Shown here piece after piece: positions 1 through 12,001 of a DNA stretch of 12,001 nucleotides. Under the pieces are notes generated by a model that did no database searches, was not told the origin of the DNA, and saw only the letters and a program-made list of their open reading frames with translations. Position numbers and translations under genes: made by a program. Where the stretch lies: IMG/VR virus record IMGVR_UViG_2711768053_000012, positions 1-12,001 of that record; one strand, written 5' to 3'. The DNA is from a virus. Its lineage: Duplodnaviria > Heunggongvirae > Uroviricota > Caudoviricetes. The stretch's first letter is position 1; each line of letters starts with the position of its first letter.

Positions 1-256
1 TGTTGGTTCCCATTGTTTCAAGGTCGATCATCAGGTGGTACCACACTCTGCTGGTGGATGTGATAACGTGATGACCGTTCACCGCAATTAAGGAATCTGC
101 CGTCTCGCCAGTTTCATTATCGCTGGCGTGGTCCTGAGCGCTGCCAGCATTCTCCTTGTGTGGATGTTCAGCGCCTTCCATTTCCTCCGGATCATTTTCC
201 TGAACTTCAACCTGATTCTCTTCATCGAATGTTTCCTGGCATGTTGCGTCGCCCAT
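1..256 (-). CDS. Putative phage exonuclease, N-terminal 85 codons only (gene continues past left edge of window)
   Basis: Own translation of the minus strand: ATG at 256..254, open frame to position 2, giving [15 protein letters not shown]...[17 protein letters not shown]. The MIDLETMGT stretch resembles the Exo I motif of DnaQ-like 3'-5' exonucleases. Absent from the ORF track because there is no stop inside the window. The plus-strand ORF 128..397 is its antisense shadow. Confidence 0.4.
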
Positions 257-397
257 CACCGCACCACAATCAGGGCAGTTGCCGCCACCGATCTGACCGC
301 AGGCGGTGCAGACTTTTTTTGTTTTAACCTCATTACAGATTTAAGGGTGAACAAATCCCTGCCATTGCTGGCATATAAAAATGAAACCGGATATTAA

Positions 398-601
398 TTA
401 CGGTGCTGTTTTAAGTCCTGCCGGGATTTCGTTATTGTCCATGCGAATAACTTTATCAACCGGATAACAGTTGCCGGGAATTTTCTGTTCCGCTGCGGCA
501 GCCATGCATTCTTTCATTGAGTCATGTATACCAATAACAAGATCGACTGGTTCGCCAGTATTAAGAAAAACTGTCAGAACGAGTGCAAATGCTGTATTCA
601 T
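398..601 (-). CDS. Hypothetical small protein (67 aa) with hydrophobic N-terminus
   Basis: Internal Met of track ORF 398..655 chosen as start because of an AAGGA Shine-Dalgarno about 9 nt upstream on the minus strand. Product MNTAFALVLTVFLNTGEP... has a signal-peptide-like or membrane N-terminus. Its start lies 3 nt after the stop of the upstream gene 604..786. The longer start at 655 cannot be excluded. Confidence 0.4.
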   Translation of the reverse strand: MNTAFALVLTVFLNTGEPVDLVIGIHDSMKECMAAAAEQKIPGNCYPVDKVIRMDNNEIPAGLKTAP

Positions 602-603
602 TG

Positions 604-786
604 TCAGCGTCCTTTTTGCATCAGGCGTAAACGGGCCAGCATTGAAACAATGCATATTTGATTTAATAGCTCCCGTTCGTGTTTTCTCTTATTAATGGCA
701 TCTTCAGTAAATACAGGGTTACTGATTCTGACACCAATTTCAAAACAACCTTCAGACGTATTGACGTTTGGTAATAACGTTTCCAT
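604..786 (-). CDS. Hypothetical small early-left protein (60 aa)
   Basis: Track ORF with GAGGA Shine-Dalgarno 7 nt upstream of the ATG at 786 (minus strand); tightly packed with the next gene. No recognisable motif. Confidence 0.45.
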   Translation of the reverse strand: METLLPNVNTSEGCFEIGVRISNPVFTEDAINKRKHERELLNQICIVSMLARLRLMQKGR

Positions 787-803
787 TATCGCGTCCTCAA
801 CAA

Positions 804-967
804 TGAATTTTGTGATGCGGTGCCTGGTGCCTCCAGGTGACGTTAACCAGTTAACAATTAACGCCGGAATACAGGGAAACCAACTCCATAAAACAAATAC
901 GGAGTACCGATCACTTTTTTAACTGTTCCGCGTGCGCTGAGCCGCATTCACCGCATCACAAAATTCA
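804..967. repeat. Perfect 19-bp inverted repeat (TGAATTTTGTGATGCGGTG at 804-822, CACCGCATCACAAAATTCA at 949-967) flanking a 126-bp spacer
   Basis: Read directly from the sequence. Lies in a roughly 560-bp stretch (787-1345) with no convincing ORF on either strand. The spacer contains further palindromic elements (GTTAACCAGTTAAC, CCTGGTGCCTCCAGG). Confidence 0.8.
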
Positions 968-1354
968 CTTTAAAAAGGGCGGACATCAGCCAGCAATGAA
1001 ACTGATGCCGCCAAAAGGTAATCAACATGGGTTGTTGCAGCGGGGTTGTCACTCAGGCGTATGGTCAACCTGACAACCCGGTGTCCTCAACAGGGGGAAG
1101 GAATAACCCCGCCATACGTACCGCCGCGCCATTTCGCGGAGTGCCACAACCGGAAGCGCACGGTCGAATTAAATTTAACGACACCGTACAGTGAGACGAA
1201 CTTCGCCGTGCGCTTTCGCGTTATGCCCTGACTTTTCAGGGATATATCCTTTCAGTAAACTGTCAGTGCCGGATGCTCACCCGTGTCCGGCGCACGCACT
1301 CCACCTGACCCGCGGAGAACTCCTTAATTACCAACCCTCAGGAGGGTGAAATTT

Positions 1355-1546
1355 ATGACACAAGAAGAAAAAATAATGTTTCTTATGCGCCTGGCTGTGG
1401 AAACCTTTAACGCCCATTGCCAGGTGTCCATTTCACCATCTCACGCCATTTCTCTTGCTACCGAGCAAATGGGGGAGATTGACGTCATTTACGATAAATT
1501 TGAGGCATTCCTGGATAAGAAGCTTATGGCAGAGAAGCGTCAATAA
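1355..1546 (+). CDS. Hypothetical small protein (63 aa), plus-strand gene inside a leftward operon
   Basis: ATG at 1355 preceded by a consensus AGGAGG 9 nt upstream; the track start at 1346 is a GTG in the same frame. Product MTQEEKIMFLMRLAVETFNAHCQ... Its 3' end overlaps the 3' end of the convergent minus-strand gene 1524..2129 by 23 nt. Confidence 0.45.
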   Translation: MTQEEKIMFLMRLAVETFNAHCQVSISPSHAISLATEQMGEIDVIYDKFEAFLDKKLMAEKRQ

Positions 1547-2129
1547 TTCTCATTACCCATCGTAAATATACCGGAGTGGGCTTGACGTTGTGTTTTTCAA
1601 GCTCGCTCTTCATTACTTCCTGCAACTTTGAGCTGATAATAAACAAATCAGGTTTATCGTTATTATTTTTATCAGCATCGTCTTTTTTTGTTTTCGACTC
1701 TTGTGGTGAATGCTCGAAAGTAACTTGCAGGGTATTATTTTTAGCGTCCGCAGAGCCTAAAGTATGTGCATATGGATGTGCTATTGTGCGCCCCTGTAAA
1801 TTTGCATCGTTTTCTAAATCTTTTGATTTCAACAGAACATCAGCAAGACTCTGAATCATGCAGAGATAATCAAAAGCAGTTGCCGTTTCTGTTCTGATTG
1901 ATGAAAGAACATGGCCATTCACGCAAACAGAAATTACCCGTTCATTAACATCGCTTTCCTGCTTTTGATTATCAGAACCATATAACCCAGAAAAAGCATT
2001 GCGCACATTACGAACCATATTATCGATGGTTTCTTTTTTAGCGGATGCCGGGTCAATTTCCACCAGGCTATCACTGAGTGTCGTTGCAGCAATTGTCTGG
2101 ATTTCTTTTGGTAAATCTTTAAATTCCAT
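1524..2129 (-). CDS. Hypothetical protein (201 aa), AT-rich, hydrophilic
   Basis: Track ORF with GAGG Shine-Dalgarno 8 nt upstream of the ATG at 2129; follows the upstream gene (stop at 2152) after a 22-nt gap. Lys/Asp/Asn-rich; no recognised domain. Appears AT-richer than neighbours by eye. Confidence 0.6.
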   Translation of the reverse strand: MEFKDLPKEIQTIAATTLSDSLVEIDPASAKKETIDNMVRNVRNAFSGLYGSDNQKQESDVNERVISVCVNGHVLSSIRTETATAFDYLCMIQSLADVLLKSKDLENDANLQGRTIAHPYAHTLGSADAKNNTLQVTFEHSPQESKTKKDDADKNNNDKPDLFIISSKLQEVMKSELEKHNVKPTPVYLRWVMRIIDASLP

Positions 2130-2151
2130 TATTAGCCTCGTTGGTTAGCTA

Positions 2152-2370
2152 TTAACGCGGGTATGTAATCATTCTGGCAACGCTTAATGCCGCTGCCTTT
2201 GTCAGACTGGCGATATCCTGCTCCAGAGCGGACAGATTTTCAGCCTGCTTAGCCCTGGCTTCATTGGCCCATTTCAGATCCTGCGCTGCATTAATTTTCT
2301 GGCGCATCCACTCATAAAGTTCATCATCGGTATAGTCTGGCGCGATGATGACGGGTTCTCGTTTCTGCAT
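2152..2370 (-). CDS. Hypothetical small phage protein (72 aa)
   Basis: Track ORF; same orientation and tight spacing with flanking leftward genes. Product MQKREPVIIAPDYTDDELYEWMRQKINAAQ... Confidence 0.55.
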   Translation of the reverse strand: MQKREPVIIAPDYTDDELYEWMRQKINAAQDLKWANEARAKQAENLSALEQDIASLTKAAALSVARMITYPR

Positions 2371-2400
2371 ACTGAATTCCTCGCGGTGCTGTTTCGCTTA

Positions 2401-2529
2401 TCAGCCGTTAGATTTTGCCGAACTGGAAAGCGCCTGTTCAAATTCGCTGAAGCTGAGGACTTCTTCGCCTTCGGCAAGGCCTTCGAAGTATTCTTCGTAA
2501 GCCTTTTCCATGATTGTGTCGAAATCCAT
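2401..2529 (-). CDS. ydaG: YdaG-like small protein (42 aa)
   Basis: Below the size cutoff of the ORF track; found by my own reverse-complement translation: MDFDTIMEKAYEEYFEGLAEGEEVLSFSEFEQALSSSAKSNG. ATG at 2529, TGA at 2403-2401. Matches my recollection of E. coli Rac prophage YdaG. Start lies 2 nt after the ydaF-like stop. Confidence 0.6.
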   Translation of the reverse strand: MDFDTIMEKAYEEYFEGLAEGEEVLSFSEFEQALSSSAKSNG

Positions 2530-2530
2530 A

Positions 2531-2686
2531 TCACTCACCTGAGTTTCTTTCCAGCCAGCGACGGGCACCATTTTCGGTTTTAAACGTTTTGCTTATGGTA
2601 TACGTCATCGCGGTGAATGTGCCGTCCTGGTTGGGAAACACGCCGTATACCAGAGATTCGTTGTTGCCAAGATCGATAGTATCCAT
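2531..2686 (-). CDS. ydaF: YdaF-like small protein (51 aa, DUF1391-like)
   Basis: Internal Met of track ORF 2531..2764 with GAGG Shine-Dalgarno 5 nt upstream. Product MDTIDLGNNESLVYGVFPNQDGTFTAMTYTISKTFKTENGARRWLERNSGE matches my recollection of Rac prophage YdaF. The 77-aa extended form is less likely. Confidence 0.6.
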   Translation of the reverse strand: MDTIDLGNNESLVYGVFPNQDGTFTAMTYTISKTFKTENGARRWLERNSGE

Positions 2687-2864
2687 GCTGACCTCATTTC
2701 CCCTTAACGCCGGGGTAGCGGAACAAAAACCTGCTGCATAGTTAAAGTTGAACCCTGCCGTCATGTTCTTACGCCTCGGGCTGGCTACTTAACCCCTGAC
2801 CACTGCCTGGTAACTCGAAGTATTGCCCTGCATTCTGTGGGGCGGGGTGGGTTGGTATGCAATA

Positions 2865-2893
2865 AATCTAAAAGTATTTAGTTTTATAGTCAA
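2865..2893 (-). promoter_or_regulatory. pL-like leftward promoter with overlapping operator palindrome
   Basis: On the minus strand: -35 TTGACT (plus 2888-2893), 17-nt spacer, -10 TAGATT (plus 2865-2870). Overlaps the imperfect palindrome AATCTAA-AAGTAT-TTAGTTT at 2865-2884, which has the same 7-6-7 architecture as sites next to the cro-like gene. Confidence 0.45.
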
Positions 2894-2910
2894 GGAAAAT
2901 CTAAATTAAT

Positions 2911-2938
2911 TTAAAAAAAGGTCGGCATAACCGACCTT
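2911..2938 (-). terminator. Rho-independent terminator downstream of the repressor gene
   Basis: Minus-strand hairpin AAGGTCGG-ttatg-CCGACCTT followed by a 7-T run, immediately after the repressor stop at 2960. Confidence 0.6.
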
Positions 2939-2959
2939 AAGTTCAAGAACATGGCAGGG

Positions 2960-3607
2960 TTATAGGTTGAACTGTACACCTTTTGCTACGGCAACAATTT
3001 TACACTCTGGCGTAAGCAAGGATGATTGATAGCGCGGATTGAGAGGGCTTAAATACACAAGTTTTCCATCAATAACTAATTTTTTTATAGTCATAGACGG
3101 TTCATTTGTAAGAGGATCTGGAACTATTACAGCGACGATACTGCCATTTTTATAACTTTCTCCTGGTCTTAGGATCACAGTGGCACCAACTGGGATACTT
3201 GGCGACCCTGAGGGGTTATGCATAGTGTCATCAGGCATTGAAACGGCAAAATCACCTTCCACTACATCAAAGAATGTGGTGATCCTATCGACATTTCCCA
3301 TTGTTTTCTCTCCTTCTAAGATTAGGAAAGAAATCGCGTCACCCCACGAAAAGTAGGGGATCTTGGTGCCTGGATTGCTCTGCACAAAAGATAGTTCAGG
3401 AGACGATACTCCATACAGGAGATAGGACTCAGTAGTTCCTAATGCTTGGGCTAACTTACTTAGAGCTTTGCTGCCGGGTTCGTTTAGATCTTTCTCCCAG
3501 TACCCTATAGTAACCCCAGTCACGCCTGAAAGCTTACCCAGTTCTACTTGGGTGAGTCCCTTATCTTTTCTGAGTTTCTTAAGCCTGATGCCAAGGCTTT
3601 CCATCAT
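2960..3607 (-). CDS. CI-like prophage repressor (N-terminal HTH_XRE, C-terminal S24 LexA-type self-cleaving peptidase)
   Basis: 215 aa. N-terminal HTH (LTQVELGKLSGVTGVTIGYWE). C-terminal S24 signatures: Ser in AVSMPD and Lys in IKKLVIDGKLVYLSPLNPRYQ, the latter closely resembling lambda CI [27 protein letters not shown] Shine-Dalgarno upstream of the ATG at 3607. Divergent from the cro-like gene. Confidence 0.9.
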   Translation of the reverse strand: MMESLGIRLKKLRKDKGLTQVELGKLSGVTGVTIGYWEKDLNEPGSKALSKLAQALGTTESYLLYGVSSPELSFVQSNPGTKIPYFSWGDAISFLILEGEKTMGNVDRITTFFDVVEGDFAVSMPDDTMHNPSGSPSIPVGATVILRPGESYKNGSIVAVIVPDPLTNEPSMTIKKLVIDGKLVYLSPLNPRYQSSLLTPECKIVAVAKGVQFNL

Positions 3608-3623
3608 TTTCTCCCGCGAGTTG

Positions 3624-3690
3624 AATATAAATTATTTTAGATTGCATTGACCTAAAAAAAATTATCCTGTAATCTAAAAATACTTAGATT
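3624..3690. promoter_or_regulatory. Immunity-region operator/promoter (OR/pR-like): two 7-6-7 palindromic operators and a rightward promoter
   Basis: Perfect palindrome AATCTAA-AAATAC-TTAGATT at 3671-3690 and near-perfect AATATAA-ATTATT-TTAGATT at 3624-3643. Candidate pR: -35 TTGACC 3647-3652, 17-nt spacer, weak -10 TAATCT 3670-3675 overlapping the operator. Sits between the divergent repressor and cro-like genes. Confidence 0.5.
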
Positions 3691-3703
3691 TTAGGAGAGT
3701 GAA

Positions 3704-3931
3704 ATGCGAGTTGATGAACTTGTTCAGTTTTTTGGCTCTGTTCAGAGGGTCGCTGATTTTTATGGGATAACCCGCGAAGCTATTTACATGTGGCGTAAGC
3801 GCCCCGGTGAAATAGTTCCGAAAGGGAGAGCTGCGGAAGCTGCTGCATACTCCAAGGGAAAATTATCTTTGAACCCAGAGCTTTACAAAAAGAAGGATAC
3901 CACTCAGAGCGAAAGGAAGAGTGATTCATGA
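3704..3931 (+). CDS. Cro-like HTH regulator (75 aa)
   Basis: GGAGAG Shine-Dalgarno 6 nt upstream. The motif ELVQFFGSVQRVADFYGITREAIYMWRKRPGEIVP parallels P22 Cro (VIDHFGTQRAVAKALGISDAAVSQWKEVIPE, from memory). First gene rightward of the repressor. Confidence 0.8.
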   Translation: MRVDELVQFFGSVQRVADFYGITREAIYMWRKRPGEIVPKGRAAEAAAYSKGKLSLNPELYKKKDTTQSERKSDS

Positions 3932-4353
3932 AAATCAAGCATGAGCACATCCGCATGGCGATGAATGCCTGGGCGCATCCGGATGGTGAAAAAGTTCCGG
4001 CAGCTGAAATAACCCGGGCTTATTTTGAGCTGGGTATGACGTTCCCGGAACTGTATGACGACAGCCATCCGGAAGCCCTGGCTCGCAATACTCAGAAAAT
4101 TTTCCGCTGGGTGGAGAAAGACACCCCTGATGCGGTTAAAAAAATTCAGGCGTTGTTACCAGCGATCGAAAAAGCAATGCCACCTCTGCTGGTGGCCCGA
4201 ATGCGCAGCCACAGTTCAGCCTATTTTCGGGAGCTGGTGGAGACGCGGGAACGACTGGTGAGAGATGCTGATGATTTTGTCGCAGTGGCGATCGCTGGTT
4301 TCAATCAGATGAATCGTGGTGGTCCGGCGGGAAATGCCCTGGTGATGCACTAA
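3928..4353 (+). CDS. ydaT: YdaT-like protein (CII functional analogue family), 141 aa
   Basis: Start overlaps the cro-like stop (ATGA). N-terminus MKIKHEHI and C-terminal ...VMH match my recollection of Rac/CP-933P YdaT; it occupies the cII position after cro. AGGAAGAG Shine-Dalgarno upstream. Confidence 0.6.
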   Translation: MKIKHEHIRMAMNAWAHPDGEKVPAAEITRAYFELGMTFPELYDDSHPEALARNTQKIFRWVEKDTPDAVKKIQALLPAIEKAMPPLLVARMRSHSSAYFRELVETRERLVRDADDFVAVAIAGFNQMNRGGPAGNALVMH

Positions 4354-4376
4354 AAGCACGGTGTTCGGAGTTTTTT

Positions 4377-5324
4377 ATGAGCAGCAAGCTTCATGGTCTT
4401 GTCTGGGAAGGGTGCGCCTTCACCGGCATGATCTTATCCAGGGTGGCAGTAATGGCTCGCCTTGCAGATTACAGCAATGACGAAGGTGTGTCATGGCCTG
4501 CAGTGGAGACCATTCGTCGTCAGATTGGGGCAAAGAGTGAATCAACGGTTAAAGCTGCGATAGCGGAACTGGAAAAGAACGGCTGGCTGACGAAGGAGGA
4601 ACGTAAGGTCGGTGGGCGTAATGTAAGCAATATCTACCGCCTTAATGTGGAAAAACTCGAAGCAGCAGCAGCGGCGGCGCGTGAGGCATATAAACCGAAA
4701 AGAAAAATTAGCCAGGCAAAAAATGACCCGTCAAATATTGCCCCCTCAACGGTTGACCCCTCAAATTTTGATGGATCAACCATTGATAAAAAACAGTCGG
4801 ATAGGGGGGCGATGGTTGGCCCCGATCCGTCAGTATTAAAACCTGATCCGTCAGATAAAAGATCTTTTCGTCCGGACGCTTCGCAACCGGACCCGCAGAC
4901 GGCTGAACAGGATTTTTTAACCCGACACCCTGACGCGGTTGTGTTCAGTGCGAAAAAACGCCAGTGGGGCAGCCAGGAAGATTTGGCGTGTGCGCAGTGG
5001 ATCTGGGGACGAATCGTGAGTCTTTACGAGCAGGCTGCCAGCGATGATGGCGAAATCATGCGACCGAAAGAACCCAACTGGACTGCATGGGCCAATGATG
5101 TGCGCACAATGCGGATGCTGGATGGCAGAACTCACAGACAAATTTGCGAAATGTTTGGTCGGGTACAGCGGGATCCATTCTGGGTAAAAAACGTCATGAG
5201 CCCGTCAAAGCTTCGCGAAAAATGGGATGAGCTGGTTATTCGTCTGGGGCGTTCGCCTGTACAGCGTTGCGTGAATCACATTTCTGAACCGGATACCGAA
5301 ATTCCGCCGGGCTTCAGGGGGTAA
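4377..5324 (+). CDS. Phage replication initiation protein (N-terminal HTH DNA-binding domain, low-complexity linker, C-terminal domain; lambda O-like organisation)
   Basis: 315 aa. N-terminal region LSRVAVMARLADYSNDEGVSWPAVETIRRQIGAKSESTVKAAIAELEKNGWL is typical of phage replication-initiator HTH domains. The linker DPSNIAPSTVDPSNFDGS...PDPSVLKPDPSDK is encoded by iteron-like DNA repeats. Sits after the cro/cII-like genes. Confidence 0.7.
   Translation: MSSKLHGLVWEGCAFTGMILSRVAVMARLADYSNDEGVSWPAVETIRRQIGAKSESTVKAAIAELEKNGWLTKEERKVGGRNVSNIYRLNVEKLEAAAAAAREAYKPKRKISQAKNDPSNIAPSTVDPSNFDGSTIDKKQSDRGAMVGPDPSVLKPDPSDKRSFRPDASQPDPQTAEQDFLTRHPDAVVFSAKKRQWGSQEDLACAQWIWGRIVSLYEQAASDDGEIMRPKEPNWTAWANDVRTMRMLDGRTHRQICEMFGRVQRDPFWVKNVMSPSKLREKWDELVIRLGRSPVQRCVNHISEPDTEIPPGFRG
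4725..4905 (+). repeat. Iteron-like direct repeats (candidate replication origin) inside the replication initiator gene
   Basis: GACCCGTCAAATATTG (4725-4740), GACCCCTCAAATTTTG (4755-4770), GATCCGTCAGTATTAAA (4824-4840), GATCCGTCAGATAAAA (4845-4860), plus degenerate copies near 4741-4750 and 4890-4899. Consensus GAYCCNTCA followed by an A/T-rich tail. Confidence 0.55.
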
Positions 5325-5366
5325 GTGTTGATTTGAGGTTATGAAGTTATTTTCTCAGGAGAGTTT

Positions 5367-5768
5367 ATGGGGACTATTTATACCGAAGAACAGCGGGAAA
5401 GATTACAGCGTCATATCGTTGACCTTGTGCGTAAAAACGGGCGTATGACAATGCCACAACTGGCATCGGCAACATATGCTTCACATGATTCCATTCGCCG
5501 GTACCTGAAGATGCTGGTGAGCGAGGGCGAAGTGTATGTTGTCAGCGGAAAAGGGGTATTCCTTTCAGAGAGGGTTTACCGTGAATGGCTGGCAAGTTCG
5601 GCAAGAAAAGCAAGGGTTATCCGCAAACCAGCACAAAAACAGGGTAAGGCAGGAGCACAACCCTATGACCGGCACCAGAACATAATTTGCCGTGAGTGCC
5701 GGAAGAGTGAAGTTATGCAGCGTGTACTGGCGTTCTATCAGGGAGATTTTCAGGAGGTGATGGAGTGA
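5367..5768 (+). CDS. Hypothetical phage protein with probable winged-helix DNA-binding N-terminus (133 aa)
   Basis: AGGAGA Shine-Dalgarno 5 nt upstream of ATG. The segment NGRMTMPQLASATYASHDSIRRYLKMLVSEGEV is wHTH-like; basic C-terminal tail. No helicase-loader features. Confidence 0.6.
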   Translation: MGTIYTEEQRERLQRHIVDLVRKNGRMTMPQLASATYASHDSIRRYLKMLVSEGEVYVVSGKGVFLSERVYREWLASSARKARVIRKPAQKQGKAGAQPYDRHQNIICRECRKSEVMQRVLAFYQGDFQEVME

Positions 5769-6070
5769 GGGTGAGGGTTTATATCGCCGGTCCGATGACC
5801 GGGTATAAAAATTTCAACCGTGAGGCGTTCCACAAGGCGGAAGAGGAACTGAAACGGGAAGGGCATACAGTCTTAAACCCAGCAGTACTTCCGGACGGAC
5901 TGACGCAGCCACACTATATGGATATTTGCATGGCAATGATTCGTTGTGTGGATGCGATTTACATGCTGAAAGGCTGGCAGCGGTCAGCAGGTGCTAAGGC
6001 AGAACTGGCACTGGCGGAGAAGCTGGGGCATGCAGTTATTTTTCAGGAGGCAACCAGTGAGCAACATTAA
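5765..6070 (+). CDS. DUF4406-like protein (nucleoside 2-deoxyribosyltransferase-like fold), 101 aa
   Basis: GTG start at 5765 overlapping the upstream stop, AGGAGG 7 nt upstream. N-terminal VYIAGPMTGYKNFNREAFHKAEEELKREGHTVLNP matches my recollection of the DUF4406 signature (YIAGPMTG...NP). Confidence 0.65.
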   Translation: MRVRVYIAGPMTGYKNFNREAFHKAEEELKREGHTVLNPAVLPDGLTQPHYMDICMAMIRCVDAIYMLKGWQRSAGAKAELALAEKLGHAVIFQEATSEQH

Positions 6071-6611
6071 TTACCAGGCACTGCGAATGGCGGCAGAAAA
6101 TGCAACCCCTGGCGAATGGTGTTCTGATGATTATGGGGTAATTGCCGATGCCGGACTGAACGCAAATTACTACATAGCATCATGCTCAGGACCAGATAAT
6201 CGCGCCAATAAGCGATTCATAGCGGCAGCCAATCCGGCTACCGTGCTGGCAGTGCTTGATGAACGGGGAGCCCAAAGCAAACGCATTGCAGAGCTGGAAG
6301 CTAATCTTGTGGCGCTGGCGGCGGAGAATGCAGGGCTGAATAAATTTATCGCACAGAGTTGCTACGTGTTTGATGGCGAGCAGGATGAAATATCTGATGC
6401 GTATATCTGCGCAAGAGACGGAGGTATGCCGCAAACCACGGCTACAGATGCTCTCCTGGCTGATGTACGGGCGGTGGCGTTTGACGAACTTCGCGCGGCG
6501 TTTGTCAGGCACGCAAAAGTTGCAGGACTGGATGATGCCGATACCGTAACGCTTAAGGAAGTGACAGAAGCATTGTTGCATTGTGCGGAACAGATTCGCT
6601 CGCCTGAATAA
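6057..6611 (+). CDS. Ead/Ea22-like phage protein
   Basis: The track ORF starts at 5991 inside the previous gene. I prefer the in-frame GTG at 6057 (AGGAGG 6045-6050, 6 nt upstream); an ATG at about 6090 is an alternative. The N-terminal motif INYQALRMAAENATPGEW resembles the conserved start of Ead/Ea22-like proteins as I recall them. Confidence 0.6.
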   Translation: MSNINYQALRMAAENATPGEWCSDDYGVIADAGLNANYYIASCSGPDNRANKRFIAAANPATVLAVLDERGAQSKRIAELEANLVALAAENAGLNKFIAQSCYVFDGEQDEISDAYICARDGGMPQTTATDALLADVRAVAFDELRAAFVRHAKVAGLDDADTVTLKEVTEALLHCAEQIRSPE

Positions 6612-6705
6612 TTAAATTTAGTGTTGCAAATAAAATTTAATCCTTAACCGGAGGGATTCCTACACCCTCAGAACATCAGGAGGCCGCCCGAAAGGGCGGT
6701 AATGA

Positions 6706-6924
6706 ATGGTCACATTATTCAGAAAAAAATATCCACGAAAGAGTAGAACAACAGAATTCCTGTTTCTCATTCTGTTTATCGTGTTAATGATACCGATATC
6801 CCCGCTAATTTTTGTCTGGGCAATCGGGAAAATAATTGAGCCAGTTATTGAATTGTATAACGACGTGGTATGGGCGTCGTTCAACACACTGCACAATAAA
6901 ATTAATCCGTATAAGGAGAACTGA
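6706..6924 (+). CDS. Hypothetical small membrane protein (72 aa; basic N-terminus plus one transmembrane helix)
   Basis: Track ORF. Product MVTLFRKKYPRKSRTTEFLFLILFIVLMIPISPLIFVWAIGK... Stop at 6922-6924, 1 nt before the next gene's ATG. Region is AT-rich by eye. An AGGAGG at 6678-6683 is separated from the ATG by a GNRA-loop hairpin. Confidence 0.5.
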   Translation: MVTLFRKKYPRKSRTTEFLFLILFIVLMIPISPLIFVWAIGKIIEPVIELYNDVVWASFNTLHNKINPYKEN

Positions 6925-6925
6925 T

Positions 6926-7444
6926 ATGACCACTATTACCAGAGAAAACGCGGAGATTAAATCATTCATCACTGGTTTCCTGAGCGACCCGGCGCACGAT
7001 ATCCAATCTTCAGACAGCCTGCTTGCCAATGTGTTTCGTATCGCACTGGCGTCACTGGAAGCAGAGCCAGTGGCGTGGAAGGCAACCTTCACGCAAATTG
7101 ACAATGAATATAATACGTTCACTGCTCTGTATTCTGACAAAGCAGAAGTCGAACGGTGGGTGCGACTGCATGAAATAGGTGACTTTCGGGCAGAAATAAC
7201 ACCGCTTTACGCAGCGCCGTCAGCGCCGGTAGCTCCAGATGGTTGGATAAGCTGTAGTGAGCGAATGCCAAAAGATGGTCAGCACGTAATTATTTTATGT
7301 GATGGCGCATTCGTTCTTTATGCGCAATATCGGGACGGTGAGTTTTTTGATGTCGTCCGCAATGGTGAGGAATTCTTCGAAACGCAGAGCCGCAATGTAA
7401 CCCACTGGATACTGCTACCGGAGCCGCCGCAGGAGGTGAACTGA
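6926..7444 (+). CDS. Phage protein with C-terminal DUF551-like domain (172 aa)
   Basis: The track ORF starts at 6836 inside the previous gene; ATG at 6926 has an AAGGAGA Shine-Dalgarno 6 nt upstream. C-terminal ...THWILLPEPPQEV matches my recollection of the DUF551 C-terminal motif. Confidence 0.65.
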   Translation: MTTITRENAEIKSFITGFLSDPAHDIQSSDSLLANVFRIALASLEAEPVAWKATFTQIDNEYNTFTALYSDKAEVERWVRLHEIGDFRAEITPLYAAPSAPVAPDGWISCSERMPKDGQHVIILCDGAFVLYAQYRDGEFFDVVRNGEEFFETQSRNVTHWILLPEPPQEVN

Positions 7445-7836
7445 TGAATGAAGGCGACAATGTTATCACCCTGGTGCAGCCAAAATCAGAGGAGGAAGGG
7501 CTCCTTAACGTTGTGATAACCGACAGAAAAAGCGGCGAGCAAAAATACTGTCAGCATATCCGTACAACAATTTCAGAAGTGAAGCGTACGATTACCTGCA
7601 ACCGATGCGGATTGGCTTTAGAACCGTTCGAACTTGTTCTCGACCGTGCGAGAAACGGTGAAAACATCGTGTCAGAGATTAAATCACTCTATGCAAAGCG
7701 GGATGCTCTTCGTGAAGCTGTGGCAAAACTTGAACGTGAAGAGAAAAACGCCAAAGCCCGGTTGCGAGCAGCCAGGACTGCAATACTGTATGCGGAAAAT
7801 GACCTTAAAAATATTGGGCAGGAGGTGAATCGATGA
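7444..7836 (+). CDS. Hypothetical phage protein (130 aa) with Cys pair and C-terminal coiled-coil-like region
   Basis: ATG overlaps the upstream stop (TGATG), AGGAGG 7 nt upstream. CQH...C...CNRC residues and a heptad-like charged C-terminus (AKRDALREAVAKLEREEKNAKARLRAAR). Confidence 0.65.
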   Translation: MNEGDNVITLVQPKSEEEGLLNVVITDRKSGEQKYCQHIRTTISEVKRTITCNRCGLALEPFELVLDRARNGENIVSEIKSLYAKRDALREAVAKLEREEKNAKARLRAARTAILYAENDLKNIGQEVNR

Positions 7837-7916
7837 CCTGGCCTGAGGCATTTACTACGGTAGGAATTGCGATGGCGGTGGCGCTGGTGGTGTATTCGAT
7901 TTGCCGCTGGGGATAA
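7833..7916 (+). CDS. Small hydrophobic peptide (27 aa), translationally coupled
   Basis: Below the ORF-track cutoff; my own translation is MTWPEAFTTVGIAMAVALVVYSICRWG. ATG overlaps the upstream stop (ATGA), with a consensus AGGAGG (7820-7825) 7 nt upstream. Single predicted transmembrane segment. Confidence 0.45.
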   Translation: MTWPEAFTTVGIAMAVALVVYSICRWG

Positions 7917-8127
7917 AAACGGTTTGCGGGAAAAGGAGAGTTAAGTAGAATTGCTGCGGGTGCTTGAGGCTATCTGCCTCAGGCATGAACACCAAAAGGC
8001 AGATAGAGAAAAGCCCCAGTTAACATTACGCGTCCTGCAAGACGCTTAACATTAATCTGAGGCCCAATCTATGTCTCACAAATGTAGGTTAGCCTCTTAC
8101 GTGCCGAAAGGCAAGGAGAAGCAGGCT

Positions 8128-8283
8128 ATGAAGCAGCAAAAGGCGATGTTAATCGCCCTGATCGTCATCTGTTTAACCGTCATAGTGACGGCACTGGTAA
8201 CGAGGAAAGACCTCTGCGAGGTACGAATCCGAACCGGCCAGACGGAGGTCGCTGTCTTCACAGCTTACGAACCTGAGGAGTAA
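8128..8283 (+). CDS. hokD: Hok/Gef family type I toxin (51 aa)
   Basis: Product MKQQKAMLIALIVICLTVIVTALVTRKDLCEVRIRTGQTEVAVFTAYEPEE matches my recollection of E. coli HokD (RelF) and aligns closely with Gef/Hok. AAGGAGA Shine-Dalgarno 8 nt upstream of the ATG at 8128. The track ORF starts at an upstream in-frame ATG (8071) giving 70 aa. The upstream leader is highly structured and a terminator follows. Confidence 0.85.
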   Translation: MKQQKAMLIALIVICLTVIVTALVTRKDLCEVRIRTGQTEVAVFTAYEPEE

Positions 8284-8351
8284 GAGACCAGGCGGGGGAG
8301 AAATCCCTCGCCACCTCTGATGTGTCAGGCATCCTCAACGCACCCGCACTT

Positions 8352-8376
8352 AACCCGCTTCGGCGGGTTTTTTATT
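8352..8376 (+). terminator. Rho-independent terminator after hok
   Basis: Hairpin AACCCGC-ttcg-GCGGGTT followed by TTTTTTATT. The 21 bp TAACCCGCTTCGGCGGGTTTT (8351-8371) recur identically at 10186-10206. Confidence 0.75.
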
Positions 8377-8421
8377 GGTTGACAAAATTATGAATATGCA
8401 CCAATATCTTGGTTGACAAAA
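8375..8421 (+). promoter_or_regulatory. Tandem 13-bp direct repeats TTGGTTGACAAAA (8375-8387 and 8409-8421) containing a consensus -35 TTGACA; candidate promoter/operator of the cassette
   Basis: Read from the sequence; repeats are 34 bp apart. The first TTGACA (8379-8384) with a 17-nt spacer gives a weak -10 CAATAT (8402-8407), placing the second repeat near the predicted transcription start. Confidence 0.45.
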
Positions 8422-8456
8422 GTCGTTTTTTGCACGGATTAGGCGGAGAAGTGTCT

Positions 8457-9050
8457 ATGCAGAAGCATCCATTCCCTTGGGAGTTCTTTCCTGAGTTAAC
8501 AGAGGATCGTTTAACCATTATAGCTGAGGAGTTGCTCAGGATACAGGATATTACTCATGAGTTATTGTCATCGCCCTATGATGATAATTACACTCGTGGT
8601 GGTTGTACATTTGGGCGTCAGCGGCAGGCGTTGCTACAAATGTGCATACGAAAGACATATGACTGGTTAAGACTACTTAATCCTGGCATGGATCTTACGT
8701 TTTCAATTGGGAATGTCCCTATTCGTTTCTTTACTGATGACGCAGATAACCCCAAGAAACGCGGTTTTTTCAAAAGAAATGATGCTGATCGACTCTTTGA
8801 GTCAGAGGAGACCACTCCAACTATGCATCGCTTTGTGGTTGAAAAGCCTGAATTTGAAGGCGAGGGTGGTAGAGTCATTTTTAATGGCTATAACGTGTTT
8901 GGTGAGATCGTGTCAACTTGGACATATGGTGCGGACCGTGTTGTTATGCTGAACTCTGTCGATGATGTACCTCCAGCACCGGTACCTATCGAACTAGAAC
9001 CTATCAGTGCGTCTAAGACTGAGAAGGAAAAGAAACAAAATAGCAAATAG
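8457..9050 (+). CDS. Hypothetical protein, first gene of the cassette (197 aa from ATG 8457; 213 aa if ATG 8409 is used)
   Basis: Track ORF 8409..9050. I prefer the in-frame ATG at 8457 (GGAG about 10 nt upstream) because the 8409 ATG lies inside the direct-repeat/-35 element. No recognisable catalytic motif; acidic Pro-rich C-terminus and Lys-rich tail. AT-richer than the flanks by eye. Confidence 0.6.
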   Translation: MQKHPFPWEFFPELTEDRLTIIAEELLRIQDITHELLSSPYDDNYTRGGCTFGRQRQALLQMCIRKTYDWLRLLNPGMDLTFSIGNVPIRFFTDDADNPKKRGFFKRNDADRLFESEETTPTMHRFVVEKPEFEGEGGRVIFNGYNVFGEIVSTWTYGADRVVMLNSVDDVPPAPVPIELEPISASKTEKEKKQNSK

Positions 9051-9060
9051 TGGGTGAAAT

Positions 9061-10182
9061 GTGTTTAACGGTACTAATTTAAGACTTGCTCGTCTGTATC
9101 ACGAGCTATCTCTGGAGCAGGTTGCTGAGAAGGTTGAAAAAACACGCCAGTATGTACAGCGACTGGAGTCTGGTTCAGCTACTCCATCCCCAGAGCTTAT
9201 AAATAAATTAGCCGAGGTTTTGCGCGTGAAGCCCGCCTTTTTCGAAGGGCAGGAACATTCTCCTGTTAATGAAGAGATTGTACATTTTCGTAAACGCGCC
9301 TCGACAAGGATGTCAACGAAGCTATCAACACTCGCTAAGGCTGAGTTTTATCGTCGTTTTATTGATGTATTTGAAGATAACCTTAATTTGTCACCTGTTC
9401 GATTTCCTGAATTTCGTGTCCATACACAAGAAGATATCGAGCGAGCGGCAGAAAAATGTCGTATTGAGTGGGGCTTAGGCTTTGGCCCAATTGAAAATAT
9501 GACTCGCCTTGCCGAGAAACTTGGGGCGTTTGTTACTTCATTTGACTCCGTTTCGGATGAAGTAGATGCACTGTCTGTTCCTCTACGAAGGCCTTTTATT
9601 GTTCGAAATACAGCTAAAAATTCACCTTGTAGGCAACGCTTTGATATTGCTCATGAGGTTGCCCATTTGATTCTTCATGAAGGAATTTCTACTGGGGATA
9701 GATTAACTGAATCCCAGGCAAACCGCTTTGCCTCTGCTCTGTTGCTTCCCAGAACGTCGATGGCGAAATATTTTCCAAGACCTGTGGGGGGGAGGATAAA
9801 TTGGCAGGGACTAAGCCAATTTAAGTTGACATGGAAAGTAAGTAAGGCTGCCATTGTTTACAGGGCTCATCAATTAGGACTTTTGACTGATGAGCAGTAC
9901 AGAACTGCATTTATGGGGTTGAAACGGAAAGGGGAAGCTATTGATGAAAAAGAAGATTATCTAATCCCTCATGAGCGTCCTGAGTTATTCCGTCGGGCTT
10001 TATCGTTTTTATTTGAAGAGTTAGGATACGACCCACAGCGTATAGCTGATGAAATGGATATAGAAGTGGACATTTTTTATGAGTTAGTAGGAGATGATCT
10101 TCCTGCGGTTCATGAACTGCCAGGAAGTGGTGATGTTGTTTCACTACAATCTTACCGAACTCTTAGAGGCAAAATTCACTAG
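9061..10182 (+). CDS. Fused HTH_XRE DNA-binding domain plus ImmA/IrrE-family (DUF955/COG2856-type) HExxH zinc metallopeptidase, 373 aa
   Basis: GTG start at 9061, first start after an in-frame stop and 10 nt after the upstream gene's stop. N-terminal HTH (LSLEQVAEKVEKTRQYVQRLESGSATPSPELINKLAEVLRV); HEVAH (HExxH) at about 9652-9666 inside FDIAHEVAHLILHE, typical of ImmA/IrrE peptidases; about 120-aa C-terminal extension. A terminator follows immediately. Confidence 0.8.
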   Translation: MFNGTNLRLARLYHELSLEQVAEKVEKTRQYVQRLESGSATPSPELINKLAEVLRVKPAFFEGQEHSPVNEEIVHFRKRASTRMSTKLSTLAKAEFYRRFIDVFEDNLNLSPVRFPEFRVHTQEDIERAAEKCRIEWGLGFGPIENMTRLAEKLGAFVTSFDSVSDEVDALSVPLRRPFIVRNTAKNSPCRQRFDIAHEVAHLILHEGISTGDRLTESQANRFASALLLPRTSMAKYFPRPVGGRINWQGLSQFKLTWKVSKAAIVYRAHQLGLLTDEQYRTAFMGLKRKGEAIDEKEDYLIPHERPELFRRALSFLFEELGYDPQRIADEMDIEVDIFYELVGDDLPAVHELPGSGDVVSLQSYRTLRGKIH

Positions 10183-10186
10183 GCAT

Positions 10187-10214
10187 AACCCGCTTCGGCG
10201 GGTTTTGTTTTTTC
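10187..10214 (+). terminator. Rho-independent terminator after the cassette (sequence-identical to the hok terminator)
   Basis: Hairpin AACCCGC-ttcg-GCGGGTT followed by TTGTTTTTTCT, beginning 5 nt after the stop at 10182. Confidence 0.75.
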
Positions 10215-10285
10215 TGAGCATCCTGGTTTACAATTCGCACGTCAGCCTGAACACCTGACACCTGCTGCGCCAGCAGAGAAAACCG

Positions 10286-10558
10286 ATGGCGCACAATACC
10301 AAACATCACAATTCTGATACCGACCTTGCCAGCAGGCACGGGCGGCGTTCTCATACATTCAAATATGACTGGTTCCAGCATGATCCATGCACTGAAGAAC
10401 AGGCCGAATGGCTGATTCAGTGTTACCGCAGGCGCGGATGCGAGGTTAAAAAAGCCCTTAGCCTCGACTACCGACATTGGATAATTTCAGTCAGGCTCCC
10501 TTATTCCGAACGCCCGCCGCGTCCGTCCCGCACATTACAGCAACGGATCTGGAGGTAA
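10286..10558 (+). CDS. Hypothetical protein (90 aa), rem-like by position
   Basis: Track ORF ending 1 nt before the YdfU-like start; weak Shine-Dalgarno. Sits directly upstream of the DUF968 gene, as rem does relative to ydfU in E. coli K-12 Qin (recollection of gene order only, no sequence recognition). Confidence 0.4.
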   Translation: MAHNTKHHNSDTDLASRHGRRSHTFKYDWFQHDPCTEEQAEWLIQCYRRRGCEVKKALSLDYRHWIISVRLPYSERPPRPSRTLQQRIWR

Positions 10559-10559
10559 C

Positions 10560-11609
10560 ATGCGGGTATTGCTTCGACCTGTTCTGGTACCGGAACTCGG
10601 GCTGGTGGTCCTTAAGCCTGGTCGTGAATCCATGCAGGTATTTCATAATCCTCGAGTGCTGGTGGAGCCGGAACCGAAAAGCATGCGCAGTCTGCCGTCA
10701 GGAGCTGTTCCTGCCGTTCGCCAGCCGCTCGTGGAAGATAAATCATTACTGCCATTTTTCAGCGATGAGCGGGCGATTCGTGCTGCTGGCGGCGCTGGCG
10801 CATTGTCTGACTGGCTCCTGCGTCATGTTAAATCCTGCCAGTGGCCTCATGGTGACTATCACCACAGCGAAACCGTCATACATCGTTACGGTACCGGCGC
10901 AATGGTGTTGTGCTGGCACTGTGACAACCAGCTGCGCGACCAGACATCAGAATCACTCGGGCAACTTGCTCAACAAAACTTGTCAGCATGGATGATTGAC
11001 GTCATCCGTCACGCAATGAATGGCACACAGGAGCGGGAATTATCGCTAGCTGAATTATCCTGGTGGGCGGTCTGCAATCGGGTAGCGGACGCGCTACCGG
11101 AGGCAGTATTACGTCGTTCTCTGGGGTTACGTGCGGAAAAAATCCGTTCGGCGTACCGCGAAAGTGACATCGTACCGGGAGAGCAGACAGCCACCAGCAT
11201 ACTGAAGCAGCGCACAAAAAATATTGTGCTACCGCCTCACGCCCACCAGCAACAGAACCCACCACAGGAAAAGACGGTGGTCAGCATTGCCGTTGATCCG
11301 GAGTCTCCTGAATCTTTCATGAAACGACCTAAACGTCGCCGTTGGGTTAATAAGAAATACACGCGCTGGGTAAAGACACAGCCGTGTGCGTGTTGTGGTA
11401 AGCCAGCCGACGATCCCCATCACCTGATTGGTCACGGTCAGGGAGGGATGGGAACAAAGGCCCACGATATTTTCACGCTACCGTTGTGCCGGGAACATCA
11501 CAACGAACTTCATGCGGATCTGCTGGCGTTCGAAGAAAAGCATGGTTCTCAGGTTGATTTAATTTTTCGTTTTCTTGATCACGCCTTTGCAACCGGCGTG
11601 CTCGGGTAA
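10560..11609 (+). CDS. DUF968-like protein, YdfU-like (349 aa) with C-terminal Cys/His-rich region
   Basis: GGAGG Shine-Dalgarno 4 nt upstream of ATG. C-terminal CACCGKPADDPHHLIGHG...CREHHNELH looks like a zinc-binding/HNH-like motif. Length and position (after a hok toxin, before nin-region genes) match my recollection of Qin YdfU. Confidence 0.65.
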   Translation: MRVLLRPVLVPELGLVVLKPGRESMQVFHNPRVLVEPEPKSMRSLPSGAVPAVRQPLVEDKSLLPFFSDERAIRAAGGAGALSDWLLRHVKSCQWPHGDYHHSETVIHRYGTGAMVLCWHCDNQLRDQTSESLGQLAQQNLSAWMIDVIRHAMNGTQERELSLAELSWWAVCNRVADALPEAVLRRSLGLRAEKIRSAYRESDIVPGEQTATSILKQRTKNIVLPPHAHQQQNPPQEKTVVSIAVDPESPESFMKRPKRRRWVNKKYTRWVKTQPCACCGKPADDPHHLIGHGQGGMGTKAHDIFTLPLCREHHNELHADLLAFEEKHGSQVDLIFRFLDHAFATGVLG

Positions 11610-11621
11610 AAGAGGTTACTG

Positions 11622-11996
11622 ATGCGTATAGAGTTTGTTTTGCCTTACCCACCGACGGTGAACACCTACTGGCGACGTCGTGGCAGCACATATTTTGTAT
11701 CAAAAGCCGGTGAGCGTTATCGCCGGGATGTGGCACTTATTGTTCGCCAGCAGCGACTGAAATTAAACCTGTCCGGAAGGCTAGCGATAAAGATTATTGC
11801 AGAGCCACCGGATAAGCGCCGCCGCGACCTGGACAATATCCTGAAGGCACCACTGGATGCGCTGACGCATGCCGGACTACTTATAGACGACGAGCAGTTT
11901 GATGAAATCAATATTGTGCGCGGTCAGCTCGTTCCTGGTGGACGTCTGGGGGTGAAGATTTACCCCATAATGCATGAAGAGCAGGTCAAAAAATGA
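11622..11996 (+). CDS. rusA: RusA-family Holliday junction resolvase
   Basis: 124 aa. PPDKRRRDLDNILKAPLDALTHAGLLIDDEQ matches the RusA catalytic region (E. coli RusA [30 protein letters not shown], from memory). AGAGG Shine-Dalgarno upstream. An ATG overlapping its stop (11993) probably starts the next nin-region gene. Confidence 0.85.
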   Translation: MRIEFVLPYPPTVNTYWRRRGSTYFVSKAGERYRRDVALIVRQQRLKLNLSGRLAIKIIAEPPDKRRRDLDNILKAPLDALTHAGLLIDDEQFDEINIVRGQLVPGGRLGVKIYPIMHEEQVKK

Positions 11997-12001
11997 AGCT
12001 G

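Follow-up and report, generated by a model that had tools for sequence, protein, structure and literature searches.

We analysed a 12,001-nucleotide (nt) stretch of viral DNA, positions 1 to 12,001 of the IMG/VR record IMGVR_UViG_2711768053_000012 (hereafter the window), and within it a small open reading frame (ORF) of 27 codons that lies between a string of early phage genes and a hok/sok locus. The small ORF is present as the initial annotation of this DNA had described it, with a single possible start, an AGGAGG motif 7 nt 5' of the ATG, an ATGA overlap with the preceding stop and one predicted hydrophobic helix. The features at the locus are:

7833-7916, plus strand: small ORF of 27 codons, product MTWPEAFTTVGIAMAVALVVYSICRWG; ATG at 7833-7835, stop codon TAA at 7914-7916
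7820-7825, plus strand: Shine-Dalgarno (SD) sequence AGGAGG within the last codons of the upstream gene; a 7-nt spacer (7826-7832) separates it from the ATG
7833-7836, plus strand: ATGA start/stop overlap of the small ORF with the upstream ORF, a junction of the termination-reinitiation type
7848-7904, plus strand: predicted transmembrane helix, codons 6-24 of the small ORF, AFTTVGIAMAVALVVYSIC, called on hydropathy; G11 invariant, A15 near-invariant

The upstream gene, an ORF of 130 amino acids (aa), stops at TGA 7834-7836 and so gives rise to the ATGA overlap. The same frame 5' of the small ORF is closed by two stops (...K*P*KYWAGGES-M) and offers no alternative start, which leaves 7833 as the sole possible start of the small ORF.

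Copies of the small ORF were collected with a search pattern that fixed codons 1, 3-6 and 25-26, the ATGA and the 27-codon length, and left codons 7-24 free. Among the matches listed, 133 copies followed this pattern, comprising 56 distinct DNA alleles and 33 peptide variants. Pattern-free samples were provided by a tblastn search, by the loci fetched from it, and by a hok-anchored sample that was defined by the hok promoter and leader and was blind to the state of the ORF. The alleles differ by up to 38% in DNA sequence. None of the 56 contains an internal stop in the small-ORF frame, while the +1 and +2 frames are stopped in all 56. Over codons 7-24, Fitch parsimony placed 40, 32 and 91 changes on the tree at codon positions 1, 2 and 3, respectively (chi-square p=6.5e-9), column entropy was 0.52, 0.30 and 0.96 in the same order, and the ratio of nonsynonymous to synonymous polymorphism (pN/pS) was 0.41 in the small-ORF frame against 0.75 (+1) and 1.87 (+2). 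The synonymous-site bias that the initial annotation had proposed to look for is thus seen as a clear third-position excess. In the comparison with phage Av-05, 11 of 16 differences fall at third positions with 13 of 18 residues unchanged (P=0.0016), and in five of six divergent pairs hydrophobicity is retained better than under randomised substitutions (P=0.0001-0.026). In the hok-anchored sample, 45 of 127 hok loci carry the ORF, which sits 28 nt 5' of the hok -10 element and is intact in 41-42 of the 45. Moreover, the peptide is kept even where the surrounding DNA differs, which is the reverse of the loss within conserved surroundings that the initial annotation had named as counter-evidence. 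Together, these patterns of sequence change indicate that the small ORF is a true coding gene whose protein product is under purifying selection.

The same data bear on the alternative that there is no gene here at all, and that a chance open frame lies in DNA conserved as a recombination junction, an RNA element or an antisense gene. Indeed, neither RefSeq nor any of the inspected phage records annotates the ORF, and in phage POCJ13 (1506-1634, minus strand) RefSeq lists a 42-aa "hypothetical protein" (gp73) antisense across it. This entry is probably a mis-annotation, the antisense frame not being conserved elsewhere. In 55 of the 56 alleles there are likewise no stops in the wobble-aligned antisense frame, whose pN/pS-type ratio is similar to that of the sense frame; this openness is an expected mirror effect of the rarity of TTA, CTA and TCA codons, and the frame holds no ORF of at least 20 codons in the window. 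The 46-aa antisense ORF that the window does contain is interrupted by stops in 40 of the 56 alleles. Against a non-gene, too, stand the third-position bias and the pN/pS pattern, which fit the sense frame, the lack of any Rfam match at the small ORF, and an RNA structure of the region with no excess over shuffled sequences (z=0.17). We regard this alternative as extremely improbable.

Residues 6-24 (A6-C24) of the product form an uncharged stretch of 19 residues, the predicted helix. Mean Kyte-Doolittle hydropathy is 2.1 for residues 7-24 in the window, and lies between 1.7 and 2.8 for residues 6-24 in all 33 variants; in nearly all variants the helix is free of charged residues. It is flanked by W3, P4 and E5 at one end and by R25 and W26 at the other. 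In an alignment of 18 peptide variants, which takes in forms outside the search pattern (25-aa deletion alleles, the 24-aa form of phage SJ46, and W3R and P4S alleles), M1, A6, G11 and W26 are invariant, and W3, P4, A15 and R25 are near-invariant. The helix is predicted to begin at P4, with a tryptophan at each membrane interface. The acidic N-terminal end and the C-terminal arginine suggest an N-out/C-in orientation by the positive-inside rule, and the Gly-xxx-Ala face formed by G11 and A15 would be compatible with helix-helix packing.

Natural variants of the peptide were also observed. Expansions of (Ala-Met)n or (Ala-Val)n lengthen the helix to give peptides of 31-35 aa (P0049, P0051 and P0053), and 6-nt deletions in the helix give peptides of 25 aa (L134 and L135, at approximately 1197-1271). 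All of these arise in period-3 or period-6 repeats of the transmembrane segment, and we therefore rejected in-frame indels as an independent sign of selection, since such a repeat period already keeps the frame. In addition, a TGG to TAG nonsense change at codon 3 occurs in three sequence backgrounds (L003, which is POCJ13, at 1501-1584; L160; L184), and this repetition could reflect either recurrent inactivation or a recombined 5' segment.

The signals for expression of the small ORF are also conserved. An AGGAG or GGAGG lies 4-16 nt 5' of the start in 126 of 136 homologous copies, and the start/stop overlap with the upstream gene is found in essentially all copies, as ATGA or, in the VT1-Sakai type, as ATGATGA. 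Since the search pattern required ATGA, independent support for the overlap comes from the tblastn-derived loci. The ATGA overlap is a recognised termination-reinitiation arrangement. The genes directly upstream in the window are:

7444-7836, plus strand: upstream ORF of 130 aa, PHROG 1621, with no Pfam domain; termination here would deliver ribosomes to the small ORF
6926-7444, plus strand: DUF551 gene, of the type that usually precedes the small ORF in other phages

The gene upstream of the small ORF is of the DUF551 type in most copies, and otherwise belongs to several Pfam-less families. The SD and the overlap are kept behind at least four unrelated upstream C-termini (PPQEVNQ, SVEDILR, IEQEVNR and KKKGMNQ). 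The homology of the flanks breaks at the borders of the small ORF, with at least eight different downstream contexts, and the downstream sequence differs from the first base after the stop, where a hok promoter, a DUF4222 gene, other genes or hairpin-plus-T terminators may follow. The conserved SD and overlap, together with homology that ends at the borders, define the mobile unit as exactly SD, 27 codons and stop, and the small ORF behaves as a self-contained mobile module.

Several observations concern the upstream gene and its junctions. The motif CAGGAGGTGAA followed by a start/stop overlap occurs twice in near-identical form, at 7430-7447 (TGATG), where it joins DUF551 to the 130-aa ORF, and at 7819-7836 (ATGA), where it joins the 130-aa ORF to the small ORF. 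Together, CAGGAGGTGAA and the overlap would form a reusable junction at which mosaic early genes are coupled and recombined. The 130-aa protein has a cysteine cluster (C36…C53-x2-C56) followed by a coiled-coil-like tail, and in phages of the 933W type the last ~100 nt (~33 codons) of its gene move together with the small ORF and hok. In one class of copies, TGATAAGCGTGGAGGAT... was considered as an intergenic SD belonging to the small ORF alone, and was rejected because the upstream gene reads through it (…LISVEDILR*) and also ends in ATGA.

The tight junction raises the possibility that the peptide is a detachable membrane anchor or partner subunit of the soluble early protein encoded upstream (DUF551 or Ead/Ea22-type), co-made with it through the ATGA. 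The near-universal overlap and the prevalence of DUF551-type neighbours agree with this, as do rare alleles (L011, on the minus strand; P0062; P0065) in which the upstream protein continues in frame at its C-terminus into the peptide and would thereby gain a C-terminal membrane anchor. However, the upstream genes come from at least 4 or 5 unrelated families, so that there is no single partner. The fusions are found on only 1-3 contigs each (P0062 and P0065 being two different alleles) and resemble plain frameshifts close to the 3' end of the upstream gene, and the same SD-plus-overlap junction joins genes unrelated to the peptide at 7430-7447. We consider an anchor or subunit role distinctly unlikely. 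Separately, "DUF551 proteins" that clustered with the peptide as apparent fusions proved to be clustering artefacts from partial, mis-framed gene calls.

The position of the small ORF could also mean that only the act of translation matters, for example by carrying ribosomes up to an accessory hotspot and preventing Rho termination, with a peptide that has no function. It is, after all, the last coupled ORF of the early string, and often stands directly before a terminator or a separately transcribed insert. A spacer ORF, however, need not stay a hydrophobic helix, whereas here the properties, the length, the termini (W-P-E-A and R-W-G) and G11 are kept across the full range of DNA divergence. 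This explanation is very unlikely.

Full-length homologues with 59-100% identity were found by tblastn in 94 phage records, among them the Shiga toxin (Stx) phages 933W, VT1-Sakai and VT2-Sakai, as well as ArgO145, POCJ13, the P1-like phage SJ46 and the Vequintavirinae phage Av-05. Of 5426 complete Escherichia coli genomes, 1594 (~29%) contain the 80-nt stretch that follows the overlap, with up to seven copies per genome and 159 places on plasmids. With the strict codon pattern, the small ORF was found in at least 120 IMG/VR viral contigs and, in a search of one genome per species, only in Escherichia and Shigella plus two tiny contigs of 431 and 369 bp from Xanthomonas and Acinetobacter assemblies, which look like contamination. 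None of the lambdoid cryptic prophages of K-12 MG1655 (DLP12, e14, Rac and Qin) carries a homologue, and the small ORF is therefore not to be expected in K-12 catalogues.

The initial annotation had called the ORF unannotated, which holds for RefSeq at all 60 sampled E. coli places and for all 10 phage records inspected, but not for a few GenBank submissions that list the exact 27-aa sequence as "hypothetical protein" or "bacteriophage protein" (for example, AOM45384.1, ASL59396.1 and ETI78407.1); GenBank entries of the peptide sometimes carry spurious N-terminal extensions. An exhaustive phmmer search of 1.84 billion representative proteins returned 25 matches, 24 of them in the same enterobacterial family; the single exception is an unrelated repeat protein, and some of the family matches are read-through, repeat-expanded or mis-started forms. 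No distant relative with a known function was among these 25 matches. Searches with three variants in Pfam, NCBIfam, PHROG and PADLOC, and with a profile in PDB, gave no family match above threshold. Among the weaker hits, identity with KdpF (TIGR02115) was rejected, as the score of 14.7 bits lies below the cutoff of 26.85 and covers only 12 residues, and the context is a phage early operon and not kdp. A DUF883_C glycine zipper (14 bits) and phrog_4612 (E=0.019) were likewise rejected as sub-threshold and composition-driven. A full-text literature search with peptide prefixes gave no match, and peptide substrings are absent from the supplements of the Sakai ribosome profiling (RIBOseq) and "Cryptic Bacterial Microproteome" papers, as far as these are searchable. 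The RIBOseq survey of small genes in enterohaemorrhagic E. coli (EHEC) Sakai covered ORFs of at least 30 aa by design, and a 27-aa ORF falls outside its scope.

The window is a lambdoid prophage of the Escherichia type. The remaining features that bear on the small ORF are:

2960-3607, minus strand: cI-like repressor with HTH_3 and Peptidase_S24 domains
7924-7929 (-35) and 7946-7951 (-10, TAGAAT), plus strand: candidate hok promoter, inferred by reading and not called by the consensus scan
7958-8133, plus strand: start of hok/sok (hok mRNA leader and sok region), Rfam RF01794, 121.7 bits; a separate transcription unit
8071-8283, plus strand: mok
8128-8283, plus strand: hok

The rightward operon runs through cro/cII-like ORFs, a replication protein, DUF977, an Ead/Ea22-like gene, DUF551 and the 130-aa PHROG 1621 gene to the small ORF, the last translationally coupled gene of the early accessory string. 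On its 3' side follow, in order, hok/sok, a RosmerTA pair (8457-10179) and a DUF968 protein. The initial annotation had placed the small ORF immediately upstream of the hok locus. This is true in the window and in 41-52 of ~133 copies (~30-40%), but the adjacency is not obligatory, as most copies adjoin other genes or a terminator, and the small ORF stands outside the hok transcript, its stop lying 41 nt before the transcript start at 7958. Conversely, most hok loci of the hok-anchored sample lack the small ORF. The link to hok is one of position only and not a functional dependency.

Two candidate relations between the small ORF and hok were rejected. A perfect 10-nt complementarity joins codons 3-6 of the small ORF (7841-7850) to the hok leader (7975-7984), and as both halves are kept in only one of ~41 hok-adjacent alleles it is attributed to chance. 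The same holds for a 9-residue match, LGLFSICRW, antisense to the hok leader, where the frame is closed and the DNA dissimilar. A different hok context, found at L049 (~7770-7976) and at many loci of the hok-anchored sample, has a 68-aa ORF whose C-terminal part is hydrophobic (…LKCALAIAAVMAIYCLVIVLMEHLSD in L049) and whose end lies immediately 5' of the hok promoter; it seems to be a second, unrelated membrane ORF at the same position by hok. Directly after hok/sok, in the nin region, the ORF at 8457-9047 (plus strand) matches RmrT (E=1e-92) and that at 9061-10179 (plus strand) matches RmrA (E=4e-201; HTH_3 and Peptidase_M78 domains), a pair which we take to be the RosmerTA anti-phage defence system. 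Between the hok terminator (8352-8369) and the start of RmrT, the 13-nt sequence TTGGTTGACAAAA is directly repeated without mismatch, at 8375-8387 and 8409-8421, 34 nt apart; this repeat may be the promoter or operator of the defence pair.

A further alternative is that the product is a small membrane-damaging toxin of the type I or holin-like kind, which, made early in infection or induction, would depolarise or permeabilise the inner membrane and so, for example, shut down the host or exclude other phages. Its shortness, its strong hydrophobicity and its single-helix size are those of TisB, DinQ, ShoB and Ibs. The small ORF is often found in accessory hotspots beside toxin-antitoxin and defence genes (hok/sok, ParDE, Doc and RosmerTA), and selection against a harmful product might explain why the codon-3 nonsense allele recurs. 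On the other hand, the only Rfam match in the window is that at 7958-8133, and no antisense RNA, promoter of its own or unusually structured mRNA was found for the small ORF; a consensus scan for promoter-like sites gave none on either strand over 7300-8500. There was also no match to Hok/Gef (PF01848) in Pfam/NCBIfam at E<=10 or in PADLOC at E<=0.01. Unlike the tightly silenced type I toxins, the peptide would be synthesised from a strong SD in stoichiometric amounts with ordinary early proteins. In nearly all variants its helix lacks both a charged and an amphipathic face, and up to seven copies are tolerated in one genome. For a holin, the lysis cassette is missing, the neighbours being DUF551, Ead/Ea22, hok/sok and RosmerTA, with no lysis genes nearby. 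We therefore hold a toxin or holin to be improbable, although not negligibly so, and a self-assembling depolarising pore to be less likely than a helix that packs against a partner.

What stands on firm ground is that selection maintains the gene, that it codes for a membrane microprotein with one helix, and that it is coupled to early genes. It is moderately probable, in our judgement, that this phage accessory gene makes a 27-residue single-pass inner-membrane microprotein that acts on another membrane protein. The gene would be part of a delayed-early operon; in the window this is the rightward one, with the replication genes on one side and the nin/Q region on the other. Ribosomes that finish the upstream gene at the ATGA would, aided by the AGGAGG, start on the small ORF, and by this coupling the peptide would be made whenever the upstream early gene is made. 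It would accordingly appear after infection or induction and not in the repressed lysogen. As the peptide is too short to leave the ribosome before release, its insertion would be post-translational, with the N-terminus (W3-P4-E5) probably outside and the C-terminus (R25-W26) inside. The helix probably packs through G11 and A15, and this small-xxx-small face would bind the transmembrane region of another membrane protein, of host or phage, and modulate it, in the mode of KdpF, AcrZ, MgtS and CydX.

Several points weigh against this proposal. Translation, timing, topology and binding mode of the product are all read from sequence features, and the binding-partner mechanism from composition alone. 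The conservation of the positions fixed by the search pattern rests on the smaller pattern-free samples (tblastn, derived loci and hok-anchored). A pN/pS of 0.41 is only moderate, and the constraint is mostly to stay hydrophobic, as would be true of any membrane peptide including a toxin. Finally, the codon-3 nonsense change in three backgrounds means that the gene is dispensable in some prophages.

A bolder extension, which we think rather unlikely, is that the small ORF is a dedicated mobile module at the end of early strings in phages as unlike in lifestyle as the lambdoid, P1-like and rV5-like ones, and either tethers upstream DUF551/Ead-type proteins to the inner membrane or disables one particular inner-membrane protein of the host, for example FtsH, a defence effector or a phage receptor. 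On this extension, the frequent placement directly 5' of hok/sok could stem from contact between the peptide and Hok within the membrane, and the family would amount to a new class of phage host-takeover or anti-defence microprotein.

The small ORF is widespread yet almost invisible: it occurs in about 29% of complete E. coli genomes, in the reference Stx phages, in P1-like phage-plasmids and in Vequintavirinae, and is shorter than the minimum length accepted by gene callers and by the one EHEC ribosome-profiling survey consulted. Transporters, sensors and proteases are known to be controlled by small membrane proteins, and an early phage-borne membrane peptide could plausibly act in host takeover, exclusion or anti-defence. 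In this very small family, the conserved W3, P4, G11, A15, R25 and W26, along with natural nonsense, deletion and repeat-expansion alleles, lend themselves to an easy genetic test. Its occurrence in Stx phages also brings the small ORF close to medical questions, and it offers a clean example for better small-ORF annotation in phage genomes.

Compared with known systems, the predicted product would belong to a known kind, the small membrane proteins of phages and prophages. With the type I toxins (Hok/Gef PF01848, TisB, DinQ, ShoB and Ibs) it has in common that it is a short hydrophobic membrane peptide, adjoining hok/sok in the window. It differs from them in having no toxin-family match, antisense RNA, promoter of its own or folded inert mRNA, in its translational coupling within a polycistronic early operon, and in that most copies are without hok. 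The dispensable small ORFs found in the exo-xis, b and nin regions of lambdoid phages (orf60a, orf61, orf63, orf73, ea8.5 and ea22) resemble it in their early strings of Ead/Ea22-like and DUF551 genes; the small ORF is similarly accessory and mosaic, and occurs in 933W- and Sakai-type Stx phages. It is, however, unrelated to these ORFs in sequence, much smaller and predicted to be membrane-embedded.

The superinfection-blocking proteins T4 Imm, P22 SieA and HK97 gp15, and also DicB, a cytoplasmic prophage protein that inhibits inner-membrane phage receptors, are likewise phage-encoded, mostly early, and active at the inner membrane, and as with T4 Imm the small ORF is also found in virulent-type phages. 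These known proteins are larger (62-160 aa), some have several helices, DicB is cytoplasmic, and there is no homology. Prophage exclusion factors normally have their own lysogen-active promoter, whereas the small ORF has none in the 7300-8500 scan.

The closest parallels lie with very small E. coli proteins that span the inner membrane once and bind a larger membrane protein, namely KdpF (29 aa), MgtS (31 aa), CydX (37 aa) and AcrZ (49 aa), and YohP, at 27 aa, sets a precedent for the size of the small ORF. There is no sequence relationship with KdpF, MgtS, CydX or AcrZ, and the small ORF is phage-borne and mobile and does not stand in a chromosomal operon beside its partner. Nevertheless, the predicted peptide would share with them the size class, one hydrophobic helix flanked by interfacial tryptophan and charged residues, post-translational insertion, and a glycine and an alanine at positions i and i+4 on one face of the helix.

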